NCBI GenBank assembly: GCA_905178155.1
Contig: CAJINV010000006.1
Coordinates: 1,489,876-1,553,875 of the forward strand
Direction: 5' to 3'
From: Amoebophrya sp. A120
Taxonomy: Eukaryota > Protista > Dinoflagellata
DNA: 64,000 nt
Shown here: positions 1-64,000 of the stretch, piece after piece
Layout of the letters: every line of letters starts with the position of its first letter
Position numbering within the stretch: position 1 is the stretch's first letter
Notes under the pieces: generated by a model
Told to the model about the DNA's origin: nothing
Database searches by the model: none
The model's input: only the letters and a program-made list of their open reading frames with translations
Translations under genes and position numbers: made by a program

Positions 1-3000
1 TCACATCAACTTCATCTTCATCTTGTGTTGCAGGAACGCCAGGAGCTCCACATCGTCGTCCTCTTTCCACCCTCTACGAACGCCTCTTCCTGATCCCGAG
101 AAGCGATTGTGACTCGATTGACTTGGACTACGAACTTCACGAACAGAAGACGCTCAAACTGTTGGAAAACGCGCTGCTTGAAAAGTTGATGCCGGTTCAG
201 TACCGAACCTGTCTGGTGCTAGGTTCGAGTTGCGTCGCGATTGGGTTTTGGGGGTTGGTTTTGGCGTTGTTGGTTTCGAGCTTCCTCTTTATTGTCCATC
301 CCTCAGCAGGTGGAGCGTCGTCGGGTTGTGCGCTACTTGCTGCCGAAAACGAAGAGGATCAAGAGGAACAACATCTGCTCTCATCTGGAAAGATGATTTT
401 CCAGCCTTTGTTCGCAGTACCAATTTTCCTTCTCTGCATCGGCAACATTCTCTGTGCGATTTTTTACCGAAAAAAGCGGCTTTTAACCAAGAACGCGGTC
501 GAAACGAGAAGACACAACATGCGGGAAGGGAATATTAAACGCGTGTCTATGACGGTGTCGGAGGAAGATATTGGGAGGTTCGGATACCCCTTGATAGCTG
601 AAGATAGCAGCAGCAGCAGTCGCACCGGACTGCTGTCTGATAAACCTCGTGCGGGTCGTGACTGCATCACAATGGAATCGAAATCGAAAACTGCGACATC
701 CGTACTACTGGCTGTTGGCTGCACAGTAGGAGTCAAAAGCGGATCAATCCAGGGCGGAGGGGGTAGTAGTTCATCTGGAGAACAACGACGAGACTACAGT
801 CCGGGGACGAGAGGCGGGAGACATACAGACCAATCCACAGAAAATACGACGCCGTCGTCTACTGAGATAAACAAATCAGAAAGAACTACTACATCAGGCA
901 GTGAAGTAGATGCTTCTTCGGATAGGAGTCCAAGCAGTGACGCAACAAGCAGCAGCTCCGCGGGCCGTCGGACAAGCCGCGGACGCCCAACAGCACGAGG
1001 ACTTTCACACAAGCGAAGGAGTAGCTCTAGTTCTCGTGTCGTGGTCACCAGCAATAAACATCGTACTATTACCAAGCACCCAAAGAACGAGAAGTTTCTC
1101 GCTTCGAGGTTTGTCACCGAGTTCTTGAACGTACGCGGGGGTACGACAAGAAGTGGAACGACCCGCGGTGGCACAAAGGATTATAGAGGAGCCACCGTTA
1201 ATACAGCAAGCTACAACTTGTCTTCCACGCGTCGAAACGAACGGAGGCAGGGTTTTTCAGCAAGTACTACATCTCCCTCTTGTCGTCCCTCCTTCCACCT
1301 GAAAAAAAGCCCACTTCTTTCCCTTCAATTCAACCCGATTTCCCTGACGTTCGAAATCGCAGACACGAGTTCGCCGCATTTCATCCACATCGGCCAGAGG
1401 CTTGTGGGGTATTTAGATTACAACGAGGAGAGCGAGGAGTACCTGAAATTGCAACGGGCAAAGCACAAGGACTTCGACAAACGGCAGCCTTCCAAGAAAA
1501 ACCCGCGCGGAAAGAAATTTTTTCAGTCCGCGGACCTGTTCTTGACCGATTTGAGCTTGGACAGGCGGGAAAGTAGTGCCGCTGTGGATCATGCCACGTC
1601 GAGGACTTCCAATGTTAACACCACCAGTTCATCTTCGACCGAGCAAAGATATACGGAGCACGCGTACAGGGAAGAAGATGGGTCTTGGTTAGTAGAGAAA
1701 AGGGCGAGGGAGTTTTTAGCCATGCGCCGGAGCTGTGAGTTGAAAACGAAAAGAGTTTCCACTGAAACCATTCAAACAACCACCACCACGCCGCCGAGAG
1801 TCGTGGGAACCACAATTGGTGCTGGGGCGGTTTTGTCGCTGCCTCCAGTGCATCAACAACATTCAGCTGCTGCGTTCTTGACCACGACAAGTAGCACAGA
1901 GCAGCAGCAGGCCGATGCAGCTGTGCTCCACCTTCCACAACAAGCCACCGTAGCAGCTCGGGGAAGCACCAGCAGCTCCGTGTTGGAGCTGAAAATTCCA
2001 AATTTGATGAACACGTCTGCTTGTGGACTCGAGAGCGCGAGTGTCTTGAGCTCCTGCAGGCGAAGCAGCGTACCGGATTTGGACAGTTGCTATGAAAATT
2101 TTAGAGCCTCGCTTTCTACTTCCGGAGGGGAACAAGTAGGTGGTGGTTGGAACAACAGGAATCGGGACAGGGAACAAGAAGTCCGGGAGGAAACAAGAGC
2201 TTCTATTCTATTGGAAAACTACGATAAACAGATCGTAGCCAGTCCGTCCGCCCTGCTTGGGATCGGCAGGATTGCGGCTGGCTGTTCTTTCTTCCCGCGG
2301 CGTCAACCTTCTAACGGAAGAATTTCCGTGGCGTCGGCGCATCGTGTTGCTCGTTCCGCAAGGACGCACGACGAAACTGCTCCCCGTCCTGTTCAGACGG
2401 AGGGGCAAGGAGGGTCCTTGCAACAGCCGCAGATGATTACAACGCAAGAGCATGCAAATGCAAACGCGGACCCAGACGCAGAGGACAGTGACGGTCGGCG
2501 GACAACGGTTTCGCAGGTGAGCGCGGAGCACGACGGGGACGAGGGGGACGACGCAGAAGATGACGATCCCAAGAACGGTGGTATAAGACACAGGAAACCC
2601 ACCTCCCCTCGTCGTTCAGAAGACGAGACAACAGGAGCGACACAATATGAAGATCAGCCCCCGACACAACAACTTCGAAACGTAGTGAAGCGACTGCGGA
2701 GGGTGTACCAGTTCCTGTATGGAGAGAACAAGCTGATGCTGAACACAACTAGTACAACGAGCGACGCACAGTCACGAGACGGCGGATCATCATCTTCATC
2801 GAGGGATACAACTAGTAGACCACCACGGGGCGGCGGCGGCGGGGAGTTACGCACTTTATTCTTCCAGGACATCGGGATGAAACGGTGGAAAAACGAACGT
2901 ATCCACAGTAAATTTCCTGTACACGTACAAATGCGGCTTCTGCATGACAAAGCTTGCCTTTGATTCTAGTTAGCATGACAAGTGGCATGCTCTAAGTTGG

Positions 3001-4304
3001 GGAAATTTGTGATGCATTTTGCACGTGTACTATGGGAAATTTCCGGTGGATAGAACGAAAACGAATAGCATTGGACTTTGAATACCGCAGGAGCTCCTTG
3101 TCCTTCATCTCTGGGCGAAATTATACTGGAAGAAAATTATGGAGGTCCTCGTCGAGCAGGGGACGAGGGCGAAAGATCCTTTTCCCTAGGCAGCGCCAGA
3201 GCAGAAGAAGCACGACGGACTGTAATTCATCGACGTATAATAGTCGCAATAGCCGAGGAATGCTCGGAAAAATAAACCGGTACCGTTCCTGGTCCTCCAC
3301 CGATTCCATAACCTCGTCTGTCCAAGGAACTGCAGGAACAAAACGGGCGTCCAGTTGCTTATCCTTAGGCAGTGACCTCCCGAATTACGTTGTCCACAAC
3401 TCGCGGAGATCCCGCTCGACTTCCGACGACGGCGGAGGAGGATACCACGGGCCACACAGCTACAACAGTACCTGTAAAAATAGATTTCTCTGCAGCTACG
3501 TGGAAACGCTCGAGGACGAACTGTTCGAGAAGGAAAAACAGCTTATGGGAGTGCACAACTCGCCTTCCTCCTCATTTGTCATGCAAAAACCCAAATCCAT
3601 GTGCCTCACAACTGTGGCACTGTTTTTTACATGACAGATTCCGGAAACCCAAACAGTACTACTTACACTAGGCGCATGAATTTGTCATGCACAGGCTCCG
3701 CGTGTGCTGGTTTTTGTATTGCTGTTCATGCCATACAAATGAGGGGTAGGGGGAGTTGTGAACTCTCATACAGCTCCGGGAAAAAACAGAACTGCTGGAA
3801 GCGATGACCACTCGACTAGCGGCGGAGGAGGAAAGTAGGCAAAGGAGAATTTGTAACACGAGCAGGGAAACAAGAAATAGTAAATCTCACTTTCGCGAAG
3901 GAGCTACAACAGAAGGGCAGAACGATAATGAAGGGACCTTTTATCCTAAAATTTTGAAGCGGTCCCAGCCCTCCTTGACCAGCGATGCCAGCACGAGGTT
4001 CCCGTCGGTAACCACGATTGGCAGTGGGAGCTCTTCGCTGCTCCGGTTGCCCAGTATAATAGGTGGAGGGATGAACAAAGCTACAAGTACGGTGGCGCCA
4101 GTACTAGCATCTTCCTCAGCTTCAACGTCAACCAGGATGAACAAACCGTCGAAAAGCGTTAGTTTCGACGATGAAACCTTGAGGGAGCAAGCATGTAGAA
4201 ATACAGCAAGTCCCCGCGGCACAACAGCAGATTGTGCAACAAGTGGAGGAGGTGGAGGGAGTGTGAAAAATAAGAAGCCTGCCCGCATCGTTGTGATACC
4301 GTGA
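1..4304 (+). CDS. Unknown membrane protein with two hydrophobic segments and long S/T/R-rich low-complexity regions; 5' end lies outside the window
   Basis: Frame is open from the window edge. Exons <1-2899, 3058-3543, 3776-4304. Removing the inserts at 2900 and 3544 (+5 nt each) joins ORFs 123, 3032 and 3804 in frame (NER|KRIAL; KQL|REKTELLEAMTT). Confidence 0.7.
2900..3052. mobile_element. Introner, singleton type
   Basis: TATCCAC..GTGGATA TIR; DR GAACG/GAACG; frame restored. Confidence 0.85.
3544..3770. mobile_element. Introner, family C (TATG..AGTGCACAACTC)
   Basis: TIR; DR CAGCT/CAGCT; frame restored. Confidence 0.9.
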
Positions 4305-7044: not shown

Positions 7045-10000
7045 ATGGGCAACGCCGGCAGCACAGCCGGCCAGGAGGCGGCCCTGCTGCAGTTTGCAGA
7101 GGCGGTGGGGACGCTGAAAACCGCAGCCGCGAAAGTGGTACAGCAGCAGGCCCGGACGAATTCACCGGACAGCGCGTGTCTGGATCTTTCTCTCGCATCA
7201 CCCGGTAGTTCCTCGCAGCTGAGGCAAGCGGTGGAGGTTTTGGTTGGAAACCATTTGGACCACCTCCCAGTGGGGCAAAATCATCCATCCTCGTCATCGT
7301 CTACTTCTTCTACTTCACCCTCAGGGAATAAACCAACCGGCACGTCGGCCACGTCGTCCTCAACATCCTCCAAAACGATCCCCCGCGCCGCCATCGCACT
7401 GGAAGACCTCGTCGAGATGCTTCCGGCAACCAACGATGAGTGGCTGTTCACGCGGGTGAAAGGTGCGGAAGGTTTTGCACTGCCGCTGGACGGGATAAAG
7501 AAGGGCAAGAACTCGCCGAAAGCAGAAGACGACACAACTACTAGTGGCCGCGCGGAGATCAAAAACTATGGGAACGAGAAGAACGCCCCTACGACAACAC
7601 TGATCCAGCTGTTATTGCAGAAGCTGATTGACGTTCTGGAAGAAGAAGCGTTTGACTCGCCAGTGGATGACATTCTAGCAGGAGTGGAAGACGATACTAG
7701 CCCAAAGGATGATGACACGAGCAGGCTAATCCAGCTGCAAAATTCGCACCTGAAAAAGCTGCACGCGATTAGGATGTTGACGCGATTACTGCCGATTTTC
7801 CTGGGAACAACGACAGAAGTCGCTGGAATATTATCTTCTGAAGATGGGACGAACAATTATGACCAAGGGGCAACATCTTCGTCGTCGTTGTTGTTCCCGG
7901 GTGCTGGTGGTGCAGAAGACGAGGCCAATTTTCTCGCAGACCAGTCCACGGCCCTGCAGTTTTCGTTCAACTTGCTGGAAGCCATCCAACTTATGCTCTT
8001 TGAGAAGAACAGCAGTGGCACATCAACCAGCAAGACAAACTCCAAATCCCGCACCGACCCGGCGCACGTCGACCCGCGGCTGTTGTGGCGGTGCGGGGTC
8101 GGGGTCGCATTGGAGTATGAGATGATGATGCGACAGTCACCTGCTTCTGGAAGTTCTTCGGGCGGATTCAACAACTCAGCTGGTAGTGGTGCAGGAACTA
8201 CAGCTACTGCTATTGGCGGGTCAGAAAATAGATCAACATCGCAGTACAACCAGACGAGCACCAGAACCACAGACCCCTTCTACTCAGAACTACAAGTCCG
8301 CGAAAAGGAGCAAGAGCTGCGGAATGAGCTCCTTCTCCTTCTCCTCGTGGCCCTAAGCGGCGCCTTGTTTAAAACCGCGGGGGAGTTAGCCGGGCGACAG
8401 GAGGAAATAGTATCGGAAGATGAATTGAGCTTGAGCAACGAAAACACAACTCCAGCGCAAATTGCAAATGCAATGCTCTCCGGGACGAGCAGTACATCAA
8501 GAGCTAGGCAGAGAAGCATGAGTAGAGATGAAGGTGAGATCATGGGTGCGAACGATTTGAGCACCTTGAGTGCCGTGGTGGATGAGAAGTTGTGGCTTCA
8601 GGTTTTCGTCACTGGCTACTTTGCGCATATCAAATGCAAAAGTGTCTGGGTCTGGAAGATTGCGAGATTTGTCATGCTTGTCAGGGATGACCAAAAAGCT
8701 TGTGATGCGTGTCCAAGACCAGACCCCTTTGCCTGTCATGCAAAAACGCAGTTTGTCATGCGAAAAACGCAACACACAGAAGCGCAGAGATTTCTCATGC
8801 GTGGCTGTGCATTACAGAGCATTCACTATTCCCAGCACAGCATTACAAGTTTCCAGACCCAGACATATTTGCATTTGATAGCGCACACCGCGAATCTATT
8901 CTTCTCACTGATGAGCACGGTATTTTTTAAACTTGTTGAACAACAACTTCTGATGAGTTGTTTCCAAGTTTGCATTTGGATTCGCTTTCAACATGATGGA
9001 TAAGTTTTTGCATAATATCTGATTTTTGTAGTCTGTTATGCAGTATGCCTAGGATTGCATCCTCCAAATTGAAATTTCCTATCAGGTCTTCTCCCCACCC
9101 CGCTTACCAATCTCCACCAGTCGATTCTCCTTTCTCGGCGGGCTATTCTTCGGCAATAGTACTAAGTCCGCAACCACGTCGGAGCGTATGGAATTCCAGG
9201 AGCAAAATACAGTGGAATTGAGCATCATGCTGCTCTCCATTCTCCTCGATTTCGAAGCCGGTGCTGGTGCGACAACGTCATTATGCATTGCAAATATGTC
9301 TGGGTCTGGAACAAGGATCCAAACTTGTCATGCTGTCTTTGGATTCTAAAAAAGTCTGTATTGCATGACAAACAAGAGGGGCCCAGATTGTGCTACGCGG
9401 AGAGGGCGTTTGTCATGCGGAGTGGGCATCACAAAGCCTTCCAAAAATCTGTGATGCTAAGTCATGCACTACAGGCACGATGGGTCATGCAGAATATGCA
9501 TGACAAACCCGGCAATCTACTTCCAGACCCAGACCTAGTATTTGCATTTGATAGTCATTCCCTTTCAACAACCAGTCCCCCACGTATAACCAACGCCGGT
9601 ACCAGAAGCGGAATTTGGTCCAAGCGAGGGATGAGGCCGCGTTTGAAAGAGAACAAGAACTTTTGCAGTACCGACAGCAAGAACATGCGGATGTTGAACT
9701 GCAGCAACACAAACTGTCGAAGAACATCAGCGACCAGAATCTCTCTGACGGCGGAGGCACGGTGTCTTCCGCGGATCAGCACGTTTCCGTTTCCAGCTCG
9801 GATCATGATCCCATGTCTTCCTCCGGCGGGGGTATAGGCATAGCCGGCGGTGGTCCTGGAGAAGCTCCGGCAATAGGTCACCCTCCAGCCCCCGCAACAA
9901 GCAACCGCTCCAGTCGGAGGTCGAGCAAAAGTAGAACCCAGGACGTCAACTCGACGAGTTCACAGCTAGACCACGGTGATGGCACAGAGCAAGTAGAATC

Positions 10001-12813
10001 CAATGCGTTCCGGTGTTTACTACAAAGCATCGAGAAAGACTCCGAGCTGGATCTGATCCTAGACTATCAACTGCAAATATGTCTGGGTCTGGAAGAATGT
10101 ATGTTTGTCATGCGTGTCTTGCATGACTCTTAAATCTGTCATGTATGTTACCCAAGAGCCCCATTTTTCTGTCATGCAGAAACGCAGTTTGTCATGCAGA
10201 ATAGGCAACGCCTAGAAGCTCAAAGACTTGTCATGCTGGGCCAGCTCTTGTGGCCTCCTCATGATACGCCACCCAGCATCACAAATTTCCAGACCCAGAC
10301 ACTTTTGCACAGGATATAGATGGGTTCCTAAGGCAGATGAACGTGGCGGACGTGATTATTTACGGCTATAACGCGAACACTTACTCGACTGCGACGTCCA
10401 AAGCGCTCCAAAACCGGGAAGAGAGGAAGGATTTGACGGACACAAACTTGATTCTCATCCTTCTCTGGCAGTGCTTACACCACAACCCGTTGTTGTTACA
10501 AAGGCTCGGAACGGCCAACGCCGGAATCCACACCCCCGGGCAGCCGAGTCGGGGGTTGGTGTTTTCGTTGTTTCTGTTGAAGCAACTGGCGAGAATGCAC
10601 GCCCAGAATTTGGACGCGATGCAGGTCGTGCACAATACTAGCAGCAGTTCTAGTACTTCGGAACAACAGCAGAGTAGAGCAGGTGGCGCAGCAGCTGGTG
10701 TAGTTCCTTCCCAACAAACAATGACCTCCAGAACAGCAGAGCTCCACCTTTGCTCGTTTTTGCTTTTGCTTCTATTATGCGTTGCAAAAGTATCGTACTC
10801 GTATAAATGCATGACAAATTTCCTCAGCATGAGAGGGAGAATTTGTAATGGGGATTTACCTTCATAAAATGATTTGTAATGCATGATTCCCATACGACTA
10901 CGAGTACGATACTTTTGCACAGGATATCTATCGGGCGAACGGAACATCGCAGTTTCTCTCAACATATCAAATGTAAAAATGTCTGGGTCTGGAAGAATGC
11001 AACTTGTCATGCTAAATCTGAAGCATGCAAAAATCTGTGTTGCATGATTACCAAAAGTCGTCCAGTTTTGACCAAGTCGGGAGGGAGTTTCTCATGCAGG
11101 ATAGGCATGAGAGAGATTGCGCAGAATCTGTCATGCTAGGTCCTGCATTCCAGGCTTCATGGGTCATGGAAAAGCTGCATGACAAACCGCGTATTCTTCT
11201 AGACCCAGACATTTTTGCATTTGATCAAACACGAGTATCAACACGAACGGAAATAAGTGGTGGGCGGTGGAGGTGTTAAACTCTTTTTCGAAAAACCTAC
11301 ACAGCACAGGTAGTGGCGTCGCCAAAGCGGCCGCGCGGACAGCAACCGCCGGGCCTCGCAGTACCGAAATGGAGCAGGCGATTCAGCAAATCAGCAAACA
11401 CTTACTTGCAGAGTCCAAGCCCGCCACTTTCGCGGATTTTTTCGTGTTGGTCCTGCTGAAATTGATAAGCGACTCGTTGCTGAAGGATGAGCCGTTGGTG
11501 GATTTGCTACTGACAATCCTCTGCAACATCTCGCCTATGCAGTGCAAAACAAGTATCGTACTAGTATAAATCGCATGACAAATTTCCTCAGCAAGCGAAA
11601 TAAAATTTGTGATGCGGATTTAACCTTGAAACAAAAATTTGTAATGCATGACTGCGATTACTACTAGTACGATATTTTTGCAATGCATATCGCCTTACCT
11701 GAAACAACTGGCGGTCACAACGTGTTTGAAGCTCACCTCCTTTTTCGAACGAATCTGCAAAAAGAATTATCTCTTGAAAAACAGCACGAATTACCGGAAT
11801 TTGTTTCTCCTCATCGAGTTTTTCACCAACATTATCCAGTACCAAGCGGAAGGGAATCAGGTTTTGCTCTACTCTCTCGTGCGGGTCAAGAGTGTGTTTG
11901 AGAAATTGGAAGAAATGGAGTTAGATGAGGAGATTGCAGAGCGGGAGGTTGAAAGGATGAGAAATGACAGAGATCAAGGCCAAATTGCAGGGTCTCAACT
12001 ATCCGACTCAACTACCACCAGCAAGCAGTCTTCCAAGGGAAAAAATACAACAACAGCAGCGGCAGCAGCAGCAACAGGAACAGCTACCTCCGGAAAAGAT
12101 AAAGACCCCAATGAACTACAAGTCAACAAGCAAAGATCCCACAGCTCTGACACGACAACGTCGACCAGCAGGTACGAACAACAATTGCTGAACAAAAAAC
12201 TTTGGTTCCATTCCTGGCACGACCAGAAACTGCCACAAGTTCTCAGCACGGTGAAGCACCTGATTTACAAGCTAGAGCCGGAGATTATTGAGCAGTTCTA
12301 CAACACTGCTCGCGAGGTATGCACTGCAAAAGTATCGTACCAGTTCTAGTATGAATTGCATTACAAATTAGCCCAGCATTTTTAACTAAATTTGTAATGC
12401 TGATTTACCTTGAGAAAGCGATTTGTACTAATGCATAAACGCAATGACTACGAGTACGATGCTTTTGCACAGGATACGAGGGCCCCGCTGGCAACTACGC
12501 ATCCGGAGACACCGCGCCGCCGGATATGGACACGATTATTGAGTACATGCGGACCAACACGACCACCGTCGGTTTACTCCCCCAGCCCCACGCGATTGTG
12601 GTGAGGACGTACATACCAAATTTGTACACGACGATCTGGTTCACGCATTTCCTGTACGGCGCGGCATTTGCGAAGATCACGACGGCGTTGGCGCCGTTGT
12701 CCTCGAGCGCGTCCGGGGGAGTGTCTGCGGCGGGGAACGCGGGGGAAAGTTTGAGTCTCGCCGGGCTGTACGACTGTAAGAAGATTAAGCTGGTAAACGT
12801 GGTGATGGCGTGA
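7045..12813 (+). CDS. HID1: HID1-family (HID-1/Ecm30) Golgi/secretory trafficking protein, ~1354 aa
   Basis: Exons 7045-8627, 8886-8919, 9086-9281, 9559-10064, 10322-10775, 10932-10964, 11232-11535, 11695-12317, 12482-12813 (4065 nt). N-terminal MG myristoylation-type start. Reassembled motifs LLLLSGERN, LLTILCNISPYLKQL, FTNIIQYQAEGN and VGLLPQPHAIVVRTY match recalled HID1 motifs. Confidence 0.92.
8628..8880. mobile_element. Introner, family A (TAT..TGCAAA..GTCTGGGTCTGGAA)
   Basis: TIR; DR GCGCA/GCGCA. Confidence 0.92.
8920..9085 (+). other. Canonical GT-AG intron in HID1 (166 nt)
   Basis: GTATTT...TATCAG; removal gives MST|VFSPP in frame. Confidence 0.8.
9282..9553. mobile_element. Introner, family A
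   Basis: TIR; DR GTCAT/GTCAT; frame restored. Confidence 0.92.
10065..10316. mobile_element. Introner, family A
   Basis: TIR; DR TAGAC/TAGAT; LILD|GFLRQ. Confidence 0.92.
10776..10926. mobile_element. Introner, family B (TAT..TGCAAAAGTATCGTAC)
   Basis: TIR; DR TCTAT/TCTAT; restores LLSGERN. Confidence 0.93.
10965..11226. mobile_element. Introner, family A (3' end ATC)
   Basis: TIR; DR CAACA/AAACA; frame restored. Confidence 0.88.
11536..11689. mobile_element. Introner, family B
   Basis: TIR; DR TCGCC/TCGCC; restores NISPYLK. Confidence 0.93.
12318..12476. mobile_element. Introner, family B
   Basis: TIR; DR CGAGG/CGAGG; can be read as GT-AG intron 12317-12480. Confidence 0.92.
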
Positions 12814-14899: not shown

Positions 14900-15667
14900 A
14901 TGAATATGATCCCGTCTTTGCTACCCGTAGAAGTTACAGACGCCAGACGTAGATCTTCTTCTTCTTCGTTGCGTGAAAATAAGATAGACAAGAGCTATGC
15001 TGTCACCAAGAAACGCAATCTATTGCGCACTGCCCTACCAGACGAAGTCTTGCCGTATTCCTCAAAGGTAGGAGGTCAACTAGAAGAACAATTATTCAGT
15101 CCTGCTCGCCCTGATGCGACGTTTTTGAAGAATGAGAAAAATTTTAGAAAGCCAACCGTAGGTAGCTCCTTTGATGGCTTGTTGGAACCTAAAAAGAGTA
15201 ACGATGTTGACGAGAAAGTTGTAAAGCTGGACACAAATAAACGTCGTGGTGTTGAGAACAACAAGCACGATGCTGAAGATTATGTCGAGTTGCAGCTATT
15301 GCCAAAAAGAAGTACTGGTAGAAGCACAGCAGTAGAATTTGACGCAGCCTGTGCTTCTGCAGATGAAAATCAATTTCAATTTCGTCCAAACCAACCTAAT
15401 TGTAGAACCTTTGGAGAAGTACAACTAGCAGTAGGACGAGTTGTAGATTATGCAAAGAACGACCCTAAAAATCAAGGACGTAGAACAGCAACTGGCCGCT
15501 GCACGAGTAGAGCCGAAAACTCCTACTTGAAATTTACCACCGCCTCGGTTCCCTTCGGGAGCACCCCTGGACTTGTCGTGGACGACAGTCTAAAGCGGTT
15601 GAAAAATGAGCAGAAACTGAGTAAAGACCTCAACACGCGCCTTGTTCAGGAGAAGGAAGCACGGGAA
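14900..15667 (+). CDS. Upstream coding segment (256 codons), in frame with centrin once insert 15668-15903 (+5 nt) is removed
   Basis: Long ATG-initiated open frame; junction reads KEARE|NKMNRTRG. No recognisable domain. Confidence 0.5.
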
Positions 15668-15903
15668 TATGACAGTGCACAAAGACCCCCCGCCCTCGTC
15701 CTCACTTGCATGTTGGCAAGAACAGCAACACAAGCAACGGCAGCTATGTGGCTTCCGCATGACAAACACGCGCACGGATCATTGTAGTACTATTTGGAAA
15801 TATCATTCCGAAATTTGGCGTGCAGGCACTGCCTCAGGGCAGGATGTGGGCTTGGTGTTTTGCATTAAAAATGAGGGAGAGGGTGGAGCTGTGCACTCTC
15901 ATA
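15668..15903. mobile_element. Introner, family C
   Basis: TIR; DR GGGAA/CGGAA. Confidence 0.87.
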
Positions 15904-15914
15904 CGGAAAACAAG

Positions 15915-19376: not shown

Positions 19377-19524
19377 TACCCTGTGCAAAAGTATCGTATT
19401 CGTATTGCAATCATGCATTACAAATCTGCTTCTTAAGGTCAGTCCGCATTACAAATTTTGTTTCTCATGCTGATGAACTTTGTAATGCATCATTTATACG
19501 AGTACGATACTTTTGCAATGCATA
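19377..19524. mobile_element. Introner, family B, in the presumed centrin 3' UTR
   Basis: TIR; DR CTCCC/CTACC; starts 20 nt after the stop codon. Confidence 0.85.
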
Positions 19525-28342: not shown

Positions 28343-28441
28343 GGTGCTGGGAGTTGATGTTGGCACGAGCCCAAATAAGCAGCATTCCAAGCGAAACACC
28401 TACCATTTTTTCACCTGCAACAAGTGCAACGGCTTGGATTC

Positions 28442-53700: not shown

Positions 53701-56700
53701 GTTGTTCCAGATGTTGAAGGTGTAGTAGTATCACCACCGCCACCGCCAAAACTCGAACAACCATCTTCCTCGTCCCCCGCAGCCGATCTCCTTGCCGCGC
53801 ACATTACCGATGGGAAGAGGATTCTCCAGAAGATGGGGCTCGGCTTGGAAAACGAAACCGTCGGCAGGTTGCGGAAGTACTTGAACCAGTTGATAGAAGA
53901 GAAGAAAGTGGAGAAAGCGGCGGAAGACGTTTTGCGAATGCAGCAAGAGAAAAACGCCGTGGCCATGGGAATTCTGCCGGCGACAGCGGTGTCACAGCAA
54001 CAGCTGCAGCACCCACCGCCTGAAGTGACTGGGACTACTACACCCGCAGGAACGGCTGAGACGCAACCGCTCATCGGAGTGGGAACATCAACTACTGCCG
54101 CCACGACCCCGGGAACAGCAGCAGCTGCCACGGCATCAGCAACTACTTTTGGTAGCCCGCACCAGCCCATCACTGGTAAGGAAGCGTACCGGGCGCTTGT
54201 AGCAACCGGATTCAGCAAAAAAGGCGCTACCATGCTCGCGAAAACCTTGTTACGGAAAGCCGGGCTGGATTTACAACCCGATGAGTTCGAACTCGCTTTG
54301 CGGGATGGGCTGAAGCAGAAGGCGAAGGAAATGAAAGAACTACGGAAGTTGAACACGAAACAGATGGGGCTTGGGTTCTCGTCTGGGGGAAGTAGTAGTA
54401 CGACAAATATGAGCTTGGGGGCGACGAATAGTTCTTCCTTCAAGAATGCAATGCTGGGACGAACATCAGACGGGGGCCCTGACACTGCAGGAGCTACTCT
54501 CGCTGGTACAGGAGCGCCTGCTACCGAAGGAGCAGATGTCCCCACGACCACCGAAACAGCAGCAGCAACCCCACAACAAGCCGCCGGCGAGGGATCAGCA
54601 CAACAGCGATTTTCGGAAGCGTCCATTCATAGCATTTCTAGCACGGAATCGGTGGAACGGCAAACAAGGCAGACGCAGAGCAAGTTTGGGGTCCATATCA
54701 AATGTAAAACTGTCTGGGTCTGGAAACTTGTGATGCTGGGTGGCGTCTCATGATGAGGCCACAAGTGCAGGCTCAGCATGACAAGTTTGTGACGAGCTTC
54801 TAGGTGTTGCCTATTCTGCATGGCAAACTGCGTTTCTGCATCACACAAAAATGGGGCTCTTGGGTAACGTGCATGACAGATTTAAGAGTCATGCCAGACA
54901 AGCATGACAAACATGCATTCTTCCAGACCCAGACACTTTTGCCTTTGATAGTCCAAAGGAAGACGCCGGATAGTGCATCTTTGTCCCGCAAGAAGCTGCA
55001 GCTATCCGGAATCTCGGAGCAGGGAAGTACTGCACCAGCGCATGCTATGGATGTGTCAGGATCGAAATCGACGAAATCGAAATGATTTGTGATGCATATA
55101 TAAAATGCAGGGCACGGAAGGCCTGTATTGGGGAGCAGGCAAATGAGACCGATTGCAAGCCTGTTTAGGGGTATGCAATGTGCTGCCAGAGTAGCACGAC
55201 AGGAGGAGTCTTCTTTGCCCAAACAGCATGACAGACTGGATTTGGGTGCTCCCGAAATTCGTCATGCGCCACCCCGCAGCAGCACAGTCTGTTTATGTCA
55301 TGCGCCACTTGGAAACTGAGGCTCCAACTGACATCGATTTTGTGCATCGCAAATTTTTCGATTTTGCCGATTTCGATTCTGACACTTCCATACATGCTCC
55401 TTTTGCGCCCGAGGGTGAAGCTTTAGAGCAGGAGGGTAACGGAGGTCCACTTTTGCTAGAACAGTCGGGCGAGCAAATTATAACTGCAGATGCGGAAGGC
55501 GAGCAGGTGGTGAATAACGCACTATCTCAACAAGATCCTTCTCTCGTTTCCTTCGGAGACCCAAATGAAGCTGGGGCTGGTGCAAGAACTGCAAACACGA
55601 ATCAAATGAACGCCTCCAAAATCATCATTTCTGCGACCACTGGCACCGCCGTGCAGCAAACCAACCCGGACGAGGAAGTTTACACCGAGGAGGACTTTCA
55701 GCGGGACCTCGCGCTGTTAAAAGCGTTTCAGGGGTACGGAAACGCGCAAACATCAGAGGCAATCAGCTTGGACGCGATTGTTCGGAGGAAGCAAACGGAG
55801 CAGAAGGTGGAGATTAACTTGTACAAGTTGCGAAAGCAGAAATTGTTTCAAATTGATTCCACGAGTTCTGGGATGAAGAAGAACAAAAAGTCCTCCTACA
55901 CGTTCGCGCAAGCCCGGGCGGAGAAGAAATTGATCGAGACCTTAGGGCTTACCCCGGAATTCGCGGCCTGGGTGGTCAAGGAAGTGGCACTTTATACAAA
56001 CTTGGAGAAAGAAACGACCACGACGGCGAAGGAAAATGTTGCAGACGCAGCAAGTACTACAACTCCTGCTGTAGGTGGCGCTGCACCTGATGCTGATTCT
56101 GGCTCGTCCCCTCCAGGTACAGCAGCAGCCGCAGAAGTTCTTTCAACAAGGCAAGGGTCAAAAGAACAACAACCTAAAGGTGGTTCTTCACACGGAAAAA
56201 GCGCACGTCACCACGCCGCCTTTATGGTGTCCCACGAACAGACAGGGTCAGGCAATGTTGCAGCCACAACAAGTACAACTTCTGCAATAGGAGCGGCTGC
56301 AACTGGAGGTGCTGCTGATGGCACTAGCAATACAAATCCTAGTACCGCTACTTCAGACGACGATGACGATGACATCGGCTATTCCGATAGCGAGGAAGAC
56401 GATAAACAGGAAAACAAATTCGTCGAGTTCGACATCCACATTCTCAATGAACACGCTTCCTGCACGCACAAGGACCACGAGAAACTGGAGGATATTTACG
56501 ACCATTGTGTTCCCCTCGGACACGAAATTCACACGTGGGACGAATTTCAAAGTCTCTTAGAAACGGCGATCGCGAAGGAAGAAGCGATATGAACTGCAAA
56601 AATGTCTGCGTCTGGAAAGTTGTAATGCTTGGCTGGGAACAGTGAATTCTCTGTAATGCACAGCCTTGCATGAGAAAGGTCTGCGCTGCTTTGTGTTGCG

Positions 56701-57089
56701 CTTTCTGCATGACAAGCTGCGTTTTTGCATGACAGGCAAGATGAGGCCCCTTTCCTGCTTATGCATCACAGATTTAAGAGTAATGCCAGACAAGCATGAC
56801 AAACGTGCCTTCTTCCAGACCCAGACATATTTGCATTCTATAAGCGAGAAAGGCCGTGGAAGCGGAAGCGGTCGCGACTTTTACGAGCTCGATGTATGGA
56901 AGATCGTTTGAAACCATTGCGAAAAACCAGGAGAGGCAAAAGATTCGGAAAGAACGGGAAACGAGGAAAAATAAACCGGACTGCTGCTACAGTTGCTTGT
57001 TTTGTCTGTGTTGCTTTCGGAGGAACAGGAAAGAGGAAACTATTGGTCCTAAAACGCTGGGAAGGAGGTCGAAGAAGAAGGTCGAGTAG
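47780..57089 (+). CDS. Large unknown single-pass membrane protein (~2366 aa) with signal peptide, one TM segment and repeated helical modules
   Basis: Exons 47780-49220, 49494-49755, 50015-50152, 50375-50441, 50763-52926, 53189-54695, 54956-55045, 55398-56587, 56848-57089 (7101 nt, one continuous frame after 8 excisions). Hydrophobic N-terminus, TM LCFVSLILCLIGGAGLVILTFVCC, C-terminal Cys cluster. Confidence 0.78.
49221..49488. mobile_element. Introner, family A
   Basis: TIR; DR GGAGC/GGAGC. Confidence 0.92.
49756..50009. mobile_element. Introner, family A
   Basis: TIR; DR ATTAA/ATCAA. Confidence 0.88.
50153..50369. mobile_element. Introner, family F
   Basis: GTTACAGTTAC / GTAACTGTAAC TIR core; DR ATCAA/ATCAA. 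Confidence 0.9.
50442..50757. mobile_element. Introner, family D
   Basis: TIR; DR TCGGG/TCGGG. Confidence 0.9.
52927..53183. mobile_element. Introner, family A
   Basis: TIR; DR GACGG/GACGG. Confidence 0.92.
54696..54950. mobile_element. Introner, family A (reverse orientation of the 10065/44921 subfamily)
   Basis: TIR; DR GTCCA/GTCCA. Confidence 0.92.
55046..55392. mobile_element. Introner, family E (TATGGA..GTCAGG..GAAATCG)
   Basis: TIR; DR CATGC/CATGC. Confidence 0.9.
56588..56842. mobile_element. Introner, family A (reverse orientation of 8628)
   Basis: TIR; DR AGCGA/AGCGA. Confidence 0.92.
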
Positions 57090-58549: not shown

Positions 58550-61500
58550 ATGCGGTTGAGAAATCCAAGAACTTTCTGGTTCTTACCGGCAATCATCTCG
58601 TTAACTTCACCAGGCTGTACCTGTACGATGAAGCTGCTCACGACCACAACCTTCTTTTCCCTCGTTGCAGCAGGAGCTTCCGGTAGCACGACGGCGGATC
58701 CGGACCAGCAGCAGCAATTTCCGGATGATGATGAGACGCTTATTCTGGGAACACAAACCACCATTACAACTTCCAGTACGTTTCTGCGGCGTGGGTTGAT
58801 GAAAGTAGAGGAAGCATCTTCGGAGACAGAGGTTGGAGGGGACCCAGAACCTTCTACTGGGACGAGAAAGTACAGCCGGAGTACAAAAAAGCCCTTGTTC
58901 AAGCCAATTGACCCCAGCAATGTGCTGCAGTATCACGAGCGGTTGGAACAACAACAAAAACAACAAGACAAGCTGGAACTGCGCGGAGCAGGAGCAGGTG
59001 CCACTTCGTCCGCAAAAAGCCTGTTGCAAAACAAAAGGACAAAGGTGAAAGACGAGAATACGTCTGCATCTCGAACAGATGAGAGCGGGACAAGAAATCA
59101 GGACCAGCTGGTGCAAATAGAGAGGAAAACGAAAGTGACCAGTTTGTTGCATAGTGGTAAGAACCCGTTGAGCAAGCTTCTTTCGAACAAGAAGAAGAAA
59201 GTGGACGAAACGACTAGCGTCCTGTTGGAACTACAGAGACCTCCTGTGACGCAACAGCAACTACAGGGTAGAACAAGAAGCGCCATAGTCGTACCGAAAA
59301 ACCAGCGGAACGGCGCTAGGAACACGGTAGTTACTACCACGAGCCGAGCTGGTGGAGAACCAGCACGACTTTCTCACCTGCAAAAACAACGAAGATCCGC
59401 CATTTCAACAAGAACGTCCACTATGAACTGCAAAAGTATCGTACTAGTATGAATTGCATTACAAATTTGCTCAGCATGAGAAATAAAATTTGTAATGCAG
59501 ATTTGCCTTAAGAAAAGGATTTGTAATGCACGCCTTGCATTTATACGAATACGATACTTTTGCACAGCATATCCACGCAAGAACTACAACATCGCAAAAA
59601 AATATCAAACCACGCGGAACATCAACAAGGATCATCCGCCCCGCCAACCACGGTGAAAGAGGCTCTTGAATCCGTAGAATTTTTCCTCGCCCCGTTAAGG
59701 GACAAGCTCGAGCAGGAAATTTTCAAAAGCTGCACAAAACCCTACATCGAAGAAATAAAACGGGTCTACCAGCACGCAGTGACGCCCATTGAATCCCTCG
59801 CGATTAAGAAGACGGAGGAAAATCCAATAGATCCAGACGCGAGGTTGGAATTGGAACAGAATTTAGAAGAATTGGAAACACGGAGAATCTCCTACCTATC
59901 CCCACTTTACGATGTGGAGAGCTGTGCGCAAAACCTCCAGACTGATCCGAACTGCCACCAGAAGAAGAAATGCAATGCAAAAGCATCGTAGTAGTATAAA
60001 TTGCATTACAAATTGGCCCAGCATTACAAATTGAATTTGTAATGCTGATTTGCCTTGAGAAAGAGATTTGTAATGCATAAATGCAATTAGTACGAGTACG
60101 ATACTTTTGCACAGGATAGAAAAAAATTTCCGACGAATTTCTCAAATCTTCCACGGCGGACGTGTCTGTGGATTTGTTATCCGGAAACACGGTGATATGG
60201 AAGCGTCAGGTTTGAAATCGACAAAGTTGAAATGATTTGTCATGCATAAAATGGATACCAGTTGGAAGCCCAATTTACAAGCGGCGGATGACGAATTTTC
60301 CGAGCACCGGAATCCAGTTCCAGTTTGTCATGCTGTTTGGGCACAGACGACTGCTTTTGTCATGCTCCTTTAGCAGCTCTACTTCAAACCCTAAACAGGC
60401 TGACACGCGGCCTCGCTTGCCATCCCCGCAAGACAGGCTCTTCATGCCTTGCATTTTATGCATGACAAACCATTTCAACTTTGGCGATTTCAAACCTGAC
60501 GCTTCCATAGGTGAGTACCCAGAACCCGGGCTCCTGGCCGGAAAACACGATCATCGATTTTGGAAGAGCGGGGAGGATATGCATTGCAAAAATGTCTGGG
60601 TCTGGAAGAATGTAGGACTTGTCATGCTTGTCTGGCATGACTCTTAGATCTGTGTTGCGTAAGCAGGAACGGGGCCTACCCTAGTGCCTGTCATGCAAAA
60701 ACGCAGTTTGCCACTCGGAAAATGAAACACATGGCAGTGCAAAAACTTGTCATGCTTGGCTGCATATTGTAGTGCGCCCACCATTCAGAGATTTGCGTCA
60801 CAAGTTTCCAGACCCAGACATATTTGCATTTGATAGAGGACGACGGATGATAATCTGGAACTGAAACGGCCGGGAATCAAATCCGTGCAGCAAGTGTTCT
60901 ACGATCTTGGAACTACAGAAGCAGCAGCCGGCTTGAAAAACCTACCGAACTTTTTCGATCCTGAGAACATAGACGACGAAAGTTTGAAGGTTATCACAAG
61001 CTCCACCACAGTCTCAATCGAGACGCCACTGGAAGAAGACTACGGAAAATACACGACGTACGAAGATTTTTACGACGAGTGTGTGAAGTCCAAAGTCGCG
61101 GAAACTTTTGTCAGTTTGGGAAATACAAAAGATGCGGAAAAATCGGAGCTGTTTTTGGAAAACTTGAAGCAAAACCTCGGATTTCTTACCTTCGGTATGG
61201 AAAAGGACGGGTCTGTGGTCCAGTGGCCGAATGTTGGGCAGGTGACAGACGGAGTGAATACAGTAGGTGCTGCCCAGCCGGATGCGAGTGCGGTAGAGAA
61301 AATCACGCCGGAACAAGCTGTGCAAAACCTGATATCCTGTGCAAAAGTATCTATACCTGTAGCAATCGCAATCATGCATTACAAACTTCCACCCCAAGGG
61401 AAAAAAGCATGACAAATTTCATTTGTCATGCTGAACGAATTTGTGATGCGATTTCTACTAGTACGATGCTTTTGCAATGCATACCTGATTGTCGGCGGCG

Positions 61501-64000
61501 ATTTAACCTCGGATGACTCCCGGGATTCCAGTTGGTACCTGAACACGGTCGTGCGGGGGCAGAAGCGAAACGTGGTCATATCAACTGCAAAAGTGTCTGG
61601 GTCGGGAAGGATGCGAAATTGTGATGCGTGTTGCGGATCATACAAAAATCTGTGTTGCATGACTTGCAAAAGGTCCCCACTTTTCGTCATGCCCGGAGGG
61701 TATTTCTCATGCAGAATGGGCATCATCAAGGCGCTGCAGAACCTGTGATGCTAGGCCCTGCGTTCCAGATTTGGCGGATGCTAGGCACTGCGTGACAAGT
61801 GTCGGAATCTTCCAGACCCAGACACTTTTGCATTTGATAGGTCATCGCCGTGGACATCTCGATGTCCATGTGGAATTCGGAAACGGTCACGAAAACGGGC
61901 GCAGACGGCAAGGAGTACCAAGAGTACATTCCCAACACGCAGCGATGGGAGAACGCGCGATCCGCGGTGGACAAAGCGCTCGATGGGTTAGACGGGGCCA
62001 AGTATGACAGTGCACAACTCACCCTCGTTCTCATTTCTCTTGCAAAACACCAAATCCACGCTTTCCCTCCTGTCACGATTATGCATGACAAGTTCTGGTA
62101 GCCCAAGAAATAGCTGCATCCAGTTGTACAAACTTGTCATGCAAACCGGCACTCTTGTTGATGCTTGTATTGCCGTTCATGCTATACAAATGAGGGGGAG
62201 GAGGAGTTGTGCACTGTCATACCAAGGGGGATCGGTTCAACGTGATGGTTTGGTCGACGGATGTGTTTTTCTCCTCTTTCGAATTAGTTCGGGCGATATC
62301 AACTGCAAACATGCCTGGGTCTGGACTGCTTGAACCTGTATTGCGTGTTTCGGATGCCATGAAAATCTGTATTGCATAAGCACCAAAAGCTCCACTTTTT
62401 CCTTTTCGTCATGCAAAATCGCAGTTTGTACTCGTAATGCGTGCTGCGTATGAGGAAGCGACTGAAAATAAACTTGTCATGCTTCACTGCACTTAAAGGC
62501 ACACTCAATCGTGACCATTCAGCATTACAAGTTTCCAGACCCGGACATATTTGCATTGGATAGGCGACCAAGGAAAATATTTTGAAAGCGAAGATCTGGC
62601 TGAAGGAGCAGGCGGGCGCGGCGATGCTGGAGGGATCGGGAACACACTACCCTTTGTAAAAACGTCCCCACCCCATAGTCAAGTTGGTAAATCTGCAACA
62701 CAAATCTCCAAGCTTTGGGAGTTTTGCATGACAAGTTTCCATCTGTAGCGTCGTTCTGTTTAGCAAGGGAAGCCGCATGAGAAAGCCAGCTTCTCATCCC
62801 GTTTGCAGCATTACAAAGTTCAAAAGACGACCCCTGGATGTGCCTCTAATACAGATCCGCATCACAAGTGTTGCTCTCATTGCCGATTTGCATGACAACT
62901 CTGGGGTCGTGGGGACGTTTTTTCTTGGGATACGCACCCGGAGTGGGCGCTGGCGAGCGCGCTGGCGTTGGGGACAAAAGGGATTGTCCCGAAGCCGCTG
63001 CTATCAAATGCAAAAATGTCTGGGTCTGGTTCTGGAAGATTGCAGGAGTTTGTCATGCATGTTTTGGATCACGCAACTGGTCTCTAATGCACGCAAAAGC
63101 TTTACAGGTTTTGCGCAGGCCTCCTGATGTCTCTCCCGCATGAGAAATTCCCTGTTTGCGTAGCAAGAAATGGAAAGCTTTTGGTGCTTATGCAATGCAA
63201 GTTTTTGCCTATTCCAGAATTCGCATGACAAGTTCCAACTCTTCCATACCCAGACATTTTTGCATTTGATACCTGCGGGACGTGTATTTCAATCCAGAGC
63301 ACAGCACGGTCGTGAAAGATGGTATTAATGGGACAGCCGTCGACCAACTGTGGGGGAGTATGATCACGGAGTTGGATCAGCAGGGAGACTGGGCCGCGAT
63401 TCCGATCAGCTGGGTGAACAGCTCGCCGCGGAAGGTCCCGTGGGGCGAGAGCAAAACCACGGTTGAGGAAAGGTTAAATAGGATCTCGGAAGAGTTTTTG
63501 AAAAAAGAATCCCGGGAGCGCTTCGCCGGGAATGCAGATCTGGAAAACGCCGAGTGCGTTTTGTGGTCCGACTTCTGCTATGGATTGCAAAAGTATCGTA
63601 CTCGTAAATGCAATACAAATTTCCTCAGCATGAGAAATAAGATCTGTCATGCAGATTTACATTGAGAAAAAAATTTGTAATGCAGGACTGCAATTACTAC
63701 GAGTGCGATACTTTTGCAGAGCATATCTGCGAAACGACAGTGTTGTTCATCACCGACGCGGATAACTACAAGAGCCAAATGTGCCTCGAAAACAAGGACG
63801 AACAGGGTAACTGCCCAAGCGGCAAAGTTACGGTCTCGCCGGAGAGTTTTCGCGGGGAGGACGGGAGTTCGGCTGGGCAGATGTTGCAGGATTTCGGGAA
63901 GTTGTTTAAAAAGGACTGGGGCGTGCTGCTTCAAGCTTTTGTGATGATTGACGAAGACACTTACGACATGGCGCAGGACGGGTCTGGCGCTTACCCGAAA
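58550..64000 (+). CDS. Second alpha2delta-like VWA protein (paralog of 39596-46473); runs off the right edge; start may be ATG 58628
   Basis: Exons 58550-59421, 59577-59968, 60124-60195, 60515-60577, 60841-61332, 61489-61578, 61845-62002, 62227-62296, 62568-62647, 62938-63001, 63277-63578, 63731->64000. DSRDSSWY..KRNVVIAVDISMSM, GDRFNV, FELVRATKEN and DFCETTVLFITDA align with the first copy. Confidence 0.85.
59422..59571. mobile_element. Introner, family B
   Basis: TIR; DR TCCAC/TCCAC. Confidence 0.92.
59969..60118. mobile_element. Introner, family B (5' end AAT)
   Basis: TIR; DR GAAGA/GAAAA. Confidence 0.85.
60196..60509. mobile_element. Introner, family E
   Basis: Long near-perfect TIR TATGGAAGCGTCAGGTTTGAAATCG; DR GGTGA/GGTGA. 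Confidence 0.93.
60578..60835. mobile_element. Introner, family A
   Basis: TIR; DR GAGGA/GAGGA. Confidence 0.92.
61333..61483. mobile_element. Introner, family B
   Basis: TIR; DR CCTGA/CCTGA. Confidence 0.92.
61579..61839. mobile_element. Introner, family A
   Basis: TIR; DR GGTCA/GGTCA; restores NVVIAVDISMS. Confidence 0.93.
62003..62221. mobile_element. Introner, family C
   Basis: Perfect TATGACAGTGCACAACTC TIR; DR CCAAG/CCAAG. Confidence 0.93.
62297..62562. mobile_element. Introner, family A
   Basis: TIR; DR GGCGA/GGCGA. Confidence 0.92.
62648..62932. mobile_element. Introner, singleton type
   Basis: AAAAACGTCCCCAC / GTGGGGACGTTTTT TIR core; DR CACAC/CGCAC. Confidence 0.85.
63002..63271. 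mobile_element. Introner, family A
   Basis: TIR; DR GCTGC/CCTGC. Confidence 0.9.
63579..63725. mobile_element. Introner, family B
   Basis: TIR; DR TCTGC/TCTGC; restores DFCETT. Confidence 0.92.

Follow-up and report, generated by a model that had tools for sequence, protein, structure and literature searches.

A 64,000-nucleotide stretch of the genome of the dinoflagellate Amoebophrya sp. A120 (contig CAJINV010000006.1, positions 1,489,876 to 1,553,875; hereafter the window) contains 57 insertions with terminal inverted repeats (TIRs), and contig evidence points to their removal from RNA at a single fixed register. The cut lies 1 nt before the element and 4 nt after it, which fits all ten informative sites. 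The element class is already known, and in the A120 genome itself, as the introner elements (IEs) of Farhat et al. 2021 (PMC7789003); the addition made here is the 1+4 register with what follows from it, resting on ten sites, two samples and assembled contigs. The account judged slightly better than even is that these IEs, resident in DNA and missing from RNA at a fixed register, are probably removed by a spliceosome with relaxed end requirements and were probably spread by a Ginger-like integrase.

Removal from RNA and the cut register

Assembled contigs were compared with the window over positions 7000-38000, a range that holds 28 of the 57 elements. Four runs (X1-X4; two samples, one study, RNA nature guessed) have transcript-like contigs, which cover genes and leave intergenic bins empty. 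Within 27000-38000 the joints at all 11 elements skip exactly the element plus 5 nt (all 11 in X3 at a depth of 82-231, seven in X2), and the RNA contigs carry no other letter difference from the window over that range. Between 7000 and 26999, 12 of the 17 elements have no RNA match among those listed, and HID1 is barely covered in X1; one of the twelve was settled later, when a loose end at 27161 in both X2 and X3, equal to 26766-26795, revealed the 57th element (26797). Record 6 of X1 measures 2446 nt, exactly as predicted for TSR3 without both of its elements, record 5 (1456 nt) likewise matches the element-free length predicted for removal of 21187 and 21390, and record 4 resumes at 19528, past element 19377. 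In total there is evidence of removal for 17 of the 28 elements among the contig matches listed. The original prediction, made from the sequence alone, that these inserts leave the RNA as element plus 5 nt without GT-AG ends is borne out by the RNA-like contigs and by the annotated A120 TSR3 protein of 689 aa, which includes both predicted element junctions; the last TSR3 exon is 100% identical to it over 467 aa, and the orthologue from strain A25 aligns across both junctions.

Perfect flanking repeats allow six cut places, so that borders look variable, and mismatched repeat copies were used as internal markers of the cut position. At most four bases of the left copy are kept at 27449 and 35371, exactly four at 36259, at least one at 33143, at least two at 33450 and 37192, at least three at 19377, and four or five at 37525, 26797 and 23888. 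A register of 4 is allowed at 10/10 informative sites, while 5 is excluded by three of them and 3 or fewer by four. The RNA therefore consists of left-copy bases 1-4 followed by right-copy base 5, and the intron is N-TA[T/C]S...SATA-NNNN. As a length, the predicted unit of element plus 5 nt stands; as a position, a cut at the element border does not. Editing of single junction bases is conceivable, but it would need to have produced the base of the right copy on three separate occasions.

The same register is found in family members of both orientations (23888, 36052 and 21187 versus 19377, 28079 and 37525) and in both orientations of a second family (23544 versus 27449 and 35371). At 37525 the repeat copies share only base 5 and the skip is still exact, indicating that the cut is measured from the element end and not by repeat pairing; an intact repeat is dispensable for exact removal at 26797 and 36259 as well. 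A cryptic GT-AG or GC-AG pair at some offset exists at 6 of the 57 elements, and the joint permits it at 33143 and 33450; the other nine of the eleven joints have none. The 1+4 register was not found stated in the portions of the literature searched, and figures 3 and S19-S23 of PMC7789003 may show it as the mode.

Element set and reading frames

An open scan for exact 5-bp direct repeats around inverted ends, with a threshold of at least 16/20 paired bases, returned 32 matches in the window and none in three shuffles. A second scan, anchored on TAT/ATA termini and tolerating up to two mismatches in the repeat, returned 54 candidates; at a score of at least 4 there were 53 real candidates versus 0 and 1 in two block-shuffled windows. 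One candidate (46631) was discarded as intergenic with a weak TIR. Elements 37192, 37525 and 44042 were recognised by eye and 26797 from the loose RNA end described above, giving a final set of 57 TIR elements of 145-361 bp that total 13,376 bases, or 21% of the window, the same count and range as first predicted. The predicted TA[T/C]...ATA ends were confirmed together with their exceptions: the 5' termini are TAT (50), TAC (6) and AAT (59969 only) and the 3' termini ATA (55) and ATC (ending at 11226 and 44196). The published anatomy of the inverted repeat (IR), TAT followed by seven loose nucleotides and at least three A, is present, with T 56, A 57 and T 51 at the first three bases and A in 50, 54 and 51 elements at TIR bases 11-13.

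Flank identity is 0.91 at a repeat length of 5 and 0.23-0.31 at lengths of 2-4 and 6-9, so the predicted repeat length holds. Its predicted universality does not: the repeat is perfect in 37/57 elements, has one mismatch in 17 and two in 2, and at 37525 agrees at 1/5 bases. The elements fall into sequence families of 15, 14, 9, 4, 2 and 2 members plus 11 singletons, the best pair being 89.5% identical. Like MITEs (transposable elements of miniature size with inverted repeats), they have TIRs, a target-site duplication (TSD) of fixed length, no coding capacity and a high copy number, contig depth summed over elements far exceeding that of unique DNA. The raw-read runs X7 (176 reads) and X8 (3 reads) matched element-like pieces only, with no exon cover. 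About 170 raw RNA reads of X7 match the first 87 nt of element 10965 (10964-11051) at 90-95% in a different context; to judge from these matches, they come from a relative in which the family is also present and one piece of this kind occurs in RNA. The motif TGT[ACG]ATGC occurs 168 times inside elements versus 10 times outside, in both orientations, and also in all four canonical introns; it probably serves as a subterminal repeat for binding, and its presence in canonical introns suggests that some of them derive from old elements.

Once the elements and the four GT-AG introns are taken out, eleven genes remain (nine complete, two truncated by the window ends); all lie on the + strand and have zero internal stops, as had been predicted. 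Fifty-six elements are coding and the remaining one (19377) lies in the 3' untranslated region (UTR) of the centrin gene. If retained, 47 of the 57 would bring stops in all three frames and 38 would shift the frame. In a frame test on the 56 elements then listed, an extra length of 2, 5 or 8 nt spanned 55, 56 and 55 of them, and other lengths 43-49. This agrees with the claim that removal of element plus 5 nt restores the frame; frame by itself gives the extra length only modulo 3, and the value of 5 is taken from the repeats and the RNA joints.

Intron ends and strand signals

In the 1+4 register the 5' side has A 21, C 15, G 9 and T 12 at +1, T in 56 elements at +2, A in 57 at +3, T 51 or C 6 at +4 and C/G in 57 at +5. 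On the 3' side there is C/G in 55 at -8, A in 57 at -7, T in 57 at -6, A in 55 at -5 and any base from -4 to -1. U2-type ends are largely absent: GT starts 9/57 introns, AG ends 3/57, and GT-AG is found in 1/57 (12318).

A TIR pattern scan of metagenome contigs provided a larger set of 168 loci (L001-L168) with 447 non-redundant elements. The loci belong to one other assembly, and their UBA2-like protein shares a 90% cluster with a protein of A120. A codon model oriented 333 of these (neighbours agree in 216/227); the 114 of uncertain orientation were excluded, and the pooled oriented set, window included, is 390. The 333 repeat the 5-bp rule with a flank identity of 0.95. A stop-codon register test at mismatched repeats in the 168 loci gave zero stops with either allele.

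Positions +2 to +4 resemble a donor, with T in 56/57 window and 333/333 locus elements, A in 57/57 and a pyrimidine in 57/57; the canonical introns of the window start GTAY in 4/4 cases (GTAT, GTAC, GTAT, GTAT). Among short plain GT-AG introns predicted in the loci without using +3 or +4, 31/61 start GTAY versus 10% of all GTs in the window; 83 of 144 predictions had been excluded because they were long, resembled elements or had an open frame. The predictor is noisy, placing 1/4 window introns exactly at both ends. The terminal T varies in 0/333 locus elements at the 5' end versus 9/333 at the mirrored 3' end (p=0.004), and in 1 versus 11 of the pooled 390 (p=0.006); the third base varies in 11 versus 2 of the pooled set (p=0.02). 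A transposase acting on DNA is blind to the transcribed strand, and this asymmetry of the ends therefore points to a directional reading of RNA.

Several candidate signals were rejected. An apparent excess of AG over a mirror control (34 vs 18) vanished against the flank background, and an association between +1 and -1 (p=0.03) was confounded by coding dinucleotide use. The motif TGTNATGC was considered as a branch point; it occurs in sense in 4/4 canonical introns of the window and 37 vs 37 times outside called elements, and is more likely a transposase-binding repeat. Apart from these rejected signals, cuts in the 1+4 register lie between codons in excess of chance: phases 0/1/2 number 165/72/96 in the 333 locus elements (p=1e-9), where they depend on model-called frames, and 25/14/17 in the window (p=0.09). 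Element-like introns with decayed TIRs that start GTATGC and/or end in AG were seen at L062 102-275 (spliced coordinates), in L037 and in L035 near 10680; these predicted introns possibly mark a path from element to canonical intron.

A proposed spliceosome with relaxed ends

The fixed rule likely reflects a spliceosome that does without the usual G and AG ends. The terminal TA[T/C] of the element would provide the native GUAY donor's +2 to +4, leaving +1 open to any base of the duplicated target, and the 3' cut would be set 4 nt from the terminal SAUA instead of by AG. This distance may be gauged from the A at -7, which is a branch-point candidate, or by the TIR stem as a ruler; fixed short branch-to-acceptor distances exist in some protists. 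One whole target copy (1+4=5) would thereby be removed and the pre-insertion message restored, so that an insertion would do no harm wherever it landed and whichever way it faced; the density of elements in the window would be explained by this.

A spliceosome is favoured on four grounds: positions +2 to +4 agree with those of the native donor, U+2 is a strand-specific invariant, the unrelated elements of A25 show U+2/A+3 in print, and mixed canonical/element ends exist, predicted cases included. In the parts of PMC7789003 consulted, 83/89 spliceosomal proteins and U2, U4, U5 and U6 are reported for A120, with U1 not found; the predominant non-canonical dinucleotide pairs start NT in 9/9 cases in A120 and TT in 9/9 in A25, whose IRs start TTA; and IRs with direct repeats occur in 15% of canonical A120 introns. 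Summed over three families in the tables of Gozashti et al. 2025 (PMC12130899) that were used, NT starts make up 6681/9716, 892/1322 and 383/540 introns (68-71%) and TA about 4%. Rfam gave 0 matches in the window and five loci (143,018 bases).

A number of observations weigh against this reading. Aligner preference for GT/CT/AT biases the NT shares in print, and the three base-5 sites that fix the register come from X3 (one also from X2), from assembled contigs whose RNA nature is guessed. Likeness to native donors ends at +4, one element (59969) starts AAT, and the asymmetry at the third base falls short of significance when the loci are taken alone (5 vs 2). In the 390 elements, AG at -2/-1 is found in 34 versus 27.5 expected (p=0.20) and G at +1 in 119 versus 115 at the mirrored site, and the intronic repeat copy shows no gain of AG (3 vs 6) or G (4 vs 6). 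The branch motif TGTNATGC has no strand bias in elements (119 vs 90, p=0.053) or in the predicted canonical introns of the loci (25 vs 21). Finally, a stem is predicted that involves TIR bases 8-16 in 57/57 elements and bases 1-3 in 43/57, and it would hide the donor.

That stem is central to the less probable, though by no means negligible, explanation that removal in the same 1+4 register is not spliceosomal: a nuclease would read the base of the TIR stem, leaving 1-nt and 4-nt overhangs, and an RNA ligase would join the exons, as is suspected for the nonconventional introns of Euglena. Solved spliceosomes use the intron bases +1, -1 and -2 in exon ligation. All three are free here, the stem is predicted in every element and both orientations are cut alike, as a nuclease would have it; the fixed spacers also resemble the 3 and 5 nt of Euglena (Nomura et al. 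2025, PMC12501133, in part), where introns are excised in circular form according to a review, and U1 was not found in A120 in the material seen from PMC7789003. Against a nuclease, however, the bases at +2 to +4 are those of the native donor, and it is only on the 5' side of the transcribed strand that U+2 never varies. IRs and direct repeats are also present in canonical A120 introns (PMC7789003), and element-like introns with AG ends are predicted (L062, L037), whereas hybrids are rare in Euglena according to the portion of PMC12501133 consulted. Mismatches in the TIR are G-U versus A-C in 26 vs 23 cases in the window and 235 vs 212 in the larger set (p=0.30), and only around half of the elements have TIR bases 4-7 paired, so that selection on RNA pairing is not seen.

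It is very improbable that the joints are artefacts of reverse-transcriptase template switching across a repeat-flanked hairpin, real mRNA retaining the inserts or being processed otherwise. A hairpin with a short direct repeat is the known signature of this artefact, it is present here, and the transcript evidence consists of cDNA-type contigs only. Nevertheless, the joints are exact despite a near-absent repeat (37525, 1/5) or two mismatches (36259, 26797); a jump should leave the right copy in place, whereas bases 1-4 derive from the left; and retention would place the stops and frameshifts counted above in TSR3, centrin and HID1. Equally hard to credit is excision from somatic DNA, raised in the original prediction, or supply of the transcripts by element-free gene copies elsewhere: the ends do resemble a transposase substrate and a minor element-free DNA form is possible beyond the joints listed for run X5, but X5, which is DNA-like in its even depth of 43-58 over unique sequence, has contigs that cross element borders exactly and mismatch-free at depth 41-47 (one spans all of 18265-18551 at 41.7), its depth in exonic bins (44-56) does not exceed that in intergenic bins (48-49), which leaves no room for a second copy, and the RNA contigs match the window letter for letter over 27000-38000.

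Mobilisation

The elements would have spread by cut-and-paste or copy-in through an integrase-type transposase with a 5-bp stagger, and the candidate mobiliser is the Ginger-like family fam38. No transposase was found in the window, where 0/56 non-genic frames match Pfam, and no autonomous element with a shared TIR was found in the window or the 168 loci, where the longest element is 1104 nt. That element (L024 505-1608) has a perfect 5-bp repeat, belongs to the family of 55046 and 60196, and has a GC-rich, repetitive interior with no Pfam match. Ginger transposons have TGT...ACA termini and a 4-bp TSD, from which the window elements, with TAT...ATA and 5 bp, differ. PMC12130899 lists A120 fam38 as Ginger with a 5-bp TSD and TA/TA termini, and in the part seen states the same mismatch; no transposase was found in A120 according to the sections seen of PMC7789003.

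Relation to known systems

Every tested feature is shared with the published A120 IEs, and the class is thus known in this genome. Farhat et al. (PMC7789003, in part) describe 29,850 copies making up 17% of the genome (21% of the window here), with IRs starting TAT, direct repeats of 3-5 nt, a mean length of about 240 nt and RNA-supported non-canonical borders; TAT, seven loose bases and an A run recur in the window. Unlike their direct repeats of 3-5 nt at variable positions, the window fits one 5-bp repeat and one register; a 5-bp direct repeat appears in their Fig. S19 legend, and the Fig. 3 legend says that the border position 'remains unknown'. The 58 A120 families of PMC12130899 agree in TIR anatomy, TA ends, element lengths (150-320 nt) and, for fam38, the 5-bp TSD, whereas the automated TSDs there range over 2-11 bp or none, with several mechanism classes and no single rule in the rows seen. 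The window elements have no open reading frame and are likened to fam38 by its described features. The original prediction was right that the class is not new, and under-rated how much was in print, notably the 5-bp direct repeat (PMC7789003) and the Ginger-like fam38 (PMC12130899).

Beyond Amoebophrya, the nonconventional introns of Euglena (PMC12501133, in part) share MITE-like inverted ends, free terminal bases and fixed motif-to-cut spacers. Their pattern, N3-CDG...CHG-N5-6|R, differs from N1-TAY(S)...(S)ATA-N4|N: the euglenid CAG at +4..+6 and CTG at -8..-6 are replaced by TAY at +2..+4 and ATA at -7..-5, no purine is needed after the cut, the Euglena motif is unlike GU donors and the lineage is unrelated. 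Fritillaria borealis offers a precedent for TIR/TSD-derived introns handled by a spliceosome of widened specificity; from what was seen of PMC13326754 and PMC11282704, it has defined ends (AG-AC, AG-AT), U1 and duplicated U2AF, whereas in A120 +1 and the last two bases are free and U1 was not found. In Micromonas and Aureococcus a MITE carries one splice signal and one TSD copy is lost on splicing (excerpts of the introner literature, including PMC11282704, PMC12005148 and PMC11453091); there GT or AG must be co-opted from the TSD and only some targets work, whereas any target serves the window elements. The elements thus fall outside the U2-type (G+1/AG), Euglena (CAG/CTG) and Ginger (termini) classes and work partly like each.

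Genes and other features of the window

Gene names given earlier are upheld by Pfam, with TSR3 (PF04034), centrin EF-hands, Hid1 (PF12722) and VWA (Table 1). Upstream of the first EF-hand, the reading frame of centrin stays open over about 280 residues, across one element and one GT-AG intron, and a long N-terminal extension is predicted. In the centrin intron 16190-18203, a 12-bp unit forms inverted arrays and there is also a pair of 35-bp palindromic repeats; its DNA contig depth of 170-390 versus about 45 indicates that it is multi-copy. The tandem paralogues m1-m3 (26664-37943) bear 4, 3 and 5 elements of different families, which suggests insertion after or during duplication. In both VWA-type genes an element (41644; 61579) lies within or just before a MIDAS-like motif, at different codons.

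Between m1 and m2, the GC-rich 2.4 kb of 28550-30930 has four tandem units of about 80 bp at each end in inverted orientation and no Pfam match; it is possibly another transposon. X3 RNA contigs cover both of its ends. In X2, two joints of low depth cross it (28703/30925, 28352/31011), and the first may be interpreted as joining a GT donor at 28706 to a 3' end that lies 4 nt past an ATA. Intergenic blocks at 4700-6500 and 13500-14600 are GC-rich (55-62% GC) and match no protein family.

Table 1. Genes, canonical introns and elements of the window, in window coordinates
Feature	Position	Strand	Remarks	Basis
element, coding	2900..3052	+	gene truncated by window start	TIR/repeat scan
element, coding	3544..3770	+		TIR/repeat scan
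HID1-family gene	7045..12813	+	7 elements, 1 GT-AG intron
element in HID1	8628..8880	+		TIR/repeat scan
canonical intron in HID1	8920..9085	+	starts GTAT	inferred from frame
element in HID1	9282..9553	+		TIR/repeat scan
element in HID1	10065..10316	+	repeat mismatch at base 5	TIR/repeat scan
element in HID1	10776..10926	+		TIR/repeat scan
element in HID1	10965..11226	+	ATC end	TIR/repeat scan
element in HID1	11536..11689	+		TIR/repeat scan
element in HID1	12318..12476	+	sole GT-AG in 1+4 register	scan
centrin-like EF-hand gene	14900..19357	+	4 coding elements, 3 GT-AG introns
element in centrin	15668..15903	+	N-terminal extension	TIR/repeat scan
canonical intron in centrin	15979..16084	+	starts GTAC	gene frame
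canonical 2-kb intron in centrin	16190..18203	+	starts GTAT	gene frame
element in centrin	18265..18551	+	crossed with both flanks by DNA-like contig, single-copy depth	scan, X5
element in centrin	18702..18921	+		TIR/repeat scan
element in centrin	18977..19137	+	splits EMI/DEAD	TIR/repeat scan, gene frame
canonical intron in centrin	19196..19298	+	starts GTAT	gene frame
element, centrin 3' UTR	19377..19524	+	RNA retains left copy to at least base 3	RNA contig
membrane protein gene, VTT domain	20449..22138	+	weak match; 2 elements
element in VTT gene	21187..21339	+	RNA-removed; length sum exact together with 21390	RNA contig
element in VTT gene	21390..21680	+	RNA-removed	RNA contig
TSR3 gene	22952..25445	+	2 elements; identical to annotated A120 protein P0001
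element in TSR3	23544..23807	+	RNA-removed	RNA contig
element in TSR3	23888..24037	+	left copy kept to base 4/5; right copy = stop	RNA contig
m1, small Cys-rich membrane protein gene	26664..28342	+	4 elements
element in m1, degenerate	26797..27156	+	register 4 or 5 from loose RNA end	RNA contig
element in m1	27449..27710	+	joint 267 nt; right-copy base 5 used	RNA contig
element in m1	27747..28011	+	joint 270 nt	RNA contig
element in m1	28079..28238	+	joint 165 nt	RNA contig
m2, paralogue of m1	32507..33838	+	3 elements
element in m2	32753..33079	+	joint 332 nt	RNA contig
element in m2	33143..33351	+	joint 214 nt; left base 1 retained	RNA contig
element in m2	33450..33762	+	joint 318 nt; left base 2 retained	RNA contig
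m3, paralogue of m1	35158..37943	+	5 elements
element in m3	35371..35635	+	joint 270 nt; right-copy base 5 used	RNA contig
element in m3	36052..36204	+	joint 158 nt	RNA contig
element in m3	36259..36619	+	unambiguous joint 36257/36624; intron 36258-36623	RNA contig
element in m3	37192..37461	+	joint 275 nt; left base 2 retained	RNA contig
element in m3	37525..37685	+	bases 1-4 unrepeated; joint 166 nt; register 4/5	RNA contig
VWA-domain gene 1	39605..46473	+	8 elements
element in VWA gene 1	41333..41594	+		TIR/repeat scan
element in VWA gene 1	41644..41905	+	splits MIDAS-like DRSA/S	scan, gene frame
element in VWA gene 1	42432..42650	+		TIR/repeat scan
element in VWA gene 1	43313..43585	+		TIR/repeat scan
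element in VWA gene 1	44042..44196	+	ATC end	by eye
element in VWA gene 1	44426..44694	+		TIR/repeat scan
element in VWA gene 1	44921..45172	+		TIR/repeat scan
element in VWA gene 1	45214..45358	+		TIR/repeat scan
gene for 2366-aa protein	47780..57089	+	family unknown; 8 elements
element in 2366-aa gene	49221..49488	+		TIR/repeat scan
element in 2366-aa gene	49756..50009	+		TIR/repeat scan
element in 2366-aa gene	50153..50369	+		TIR/repeat scan
element in 2366-aa gene	50442..50757	+		TIR/repeat scan
element in 2366-aa gene	52927..53183	+		TIR/repeat scan
element in 2366-aa gene	54696..54950	+		TIR/repeat scan
element in 2366-aa gene	55046..55392	+		TIR/repeat scan
element in 2366-aa gene	56588..56842	+		TIR/repeat scan
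VWA-like gene 2	58550..63998	+	truncated by window end; 11 elements
element in VWA-like gene 2	59422..59571	+		TIR/repeat scan
element in VWA-like gene 2	59969..60118	+	AAT start; sole A at +2; frame needs removal	scan
element in VWA-like gene 2	60196..60509	+		TIR/repeat scan
element in VWA-like gene 2	60578..60835	+		TIR/repeat scan
element in VWA-like gene 2	61333..61483	+		TIR/repeat scan
element in VWA-like gene 2	61579..61839	+	near MIDAS-like motif	TIR/repeat scan
element in VWA-like gene 2	62003..62221	+		TIR/repeat scan
element in VWA-like gene 2	62297..62562	+		TIR/repeat scan
element in VWA-like gene 2	62648..62932	+		TIR/repeat scan
element in VWA-like gene 2	63002..63271	+		TIR/repeat scan
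element in VWA-like gene 2	63579..63725	+		TIR/repeat scan

Implications

The evidence leans, if not heavily, towards a nuclear splicing route in A120 that puts no constraint at all on the first base of the intron or on its last two, tens of thousands of transposon introns obeying exon|N-UAY-S...S-AUA-NNNN|exon. If this is true, the code undoes any 5-bp-duplicating insertion in either orientation, and either a U1-less spliceosome without the G+1 and AG docking contacts or a second enzyme would represent an undescribed splicing chemistry. The annotated variety of A120 borders would then be mostly an alignment artefact, and the single register turns the wide motif variety that has been claimed into one testable code. 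It indicates where a lariat would be expected (A at -7 or -5) and what junction a circle would have, and would permit re-annotation of A120 genes. Mismatched target duplications can serve as markers of the cut in public A120 and A25 data and for other TSD-flanked introns. Furthermore, the register would account for the survival of a gene-dense genome of which a transposon makes up a fifth.

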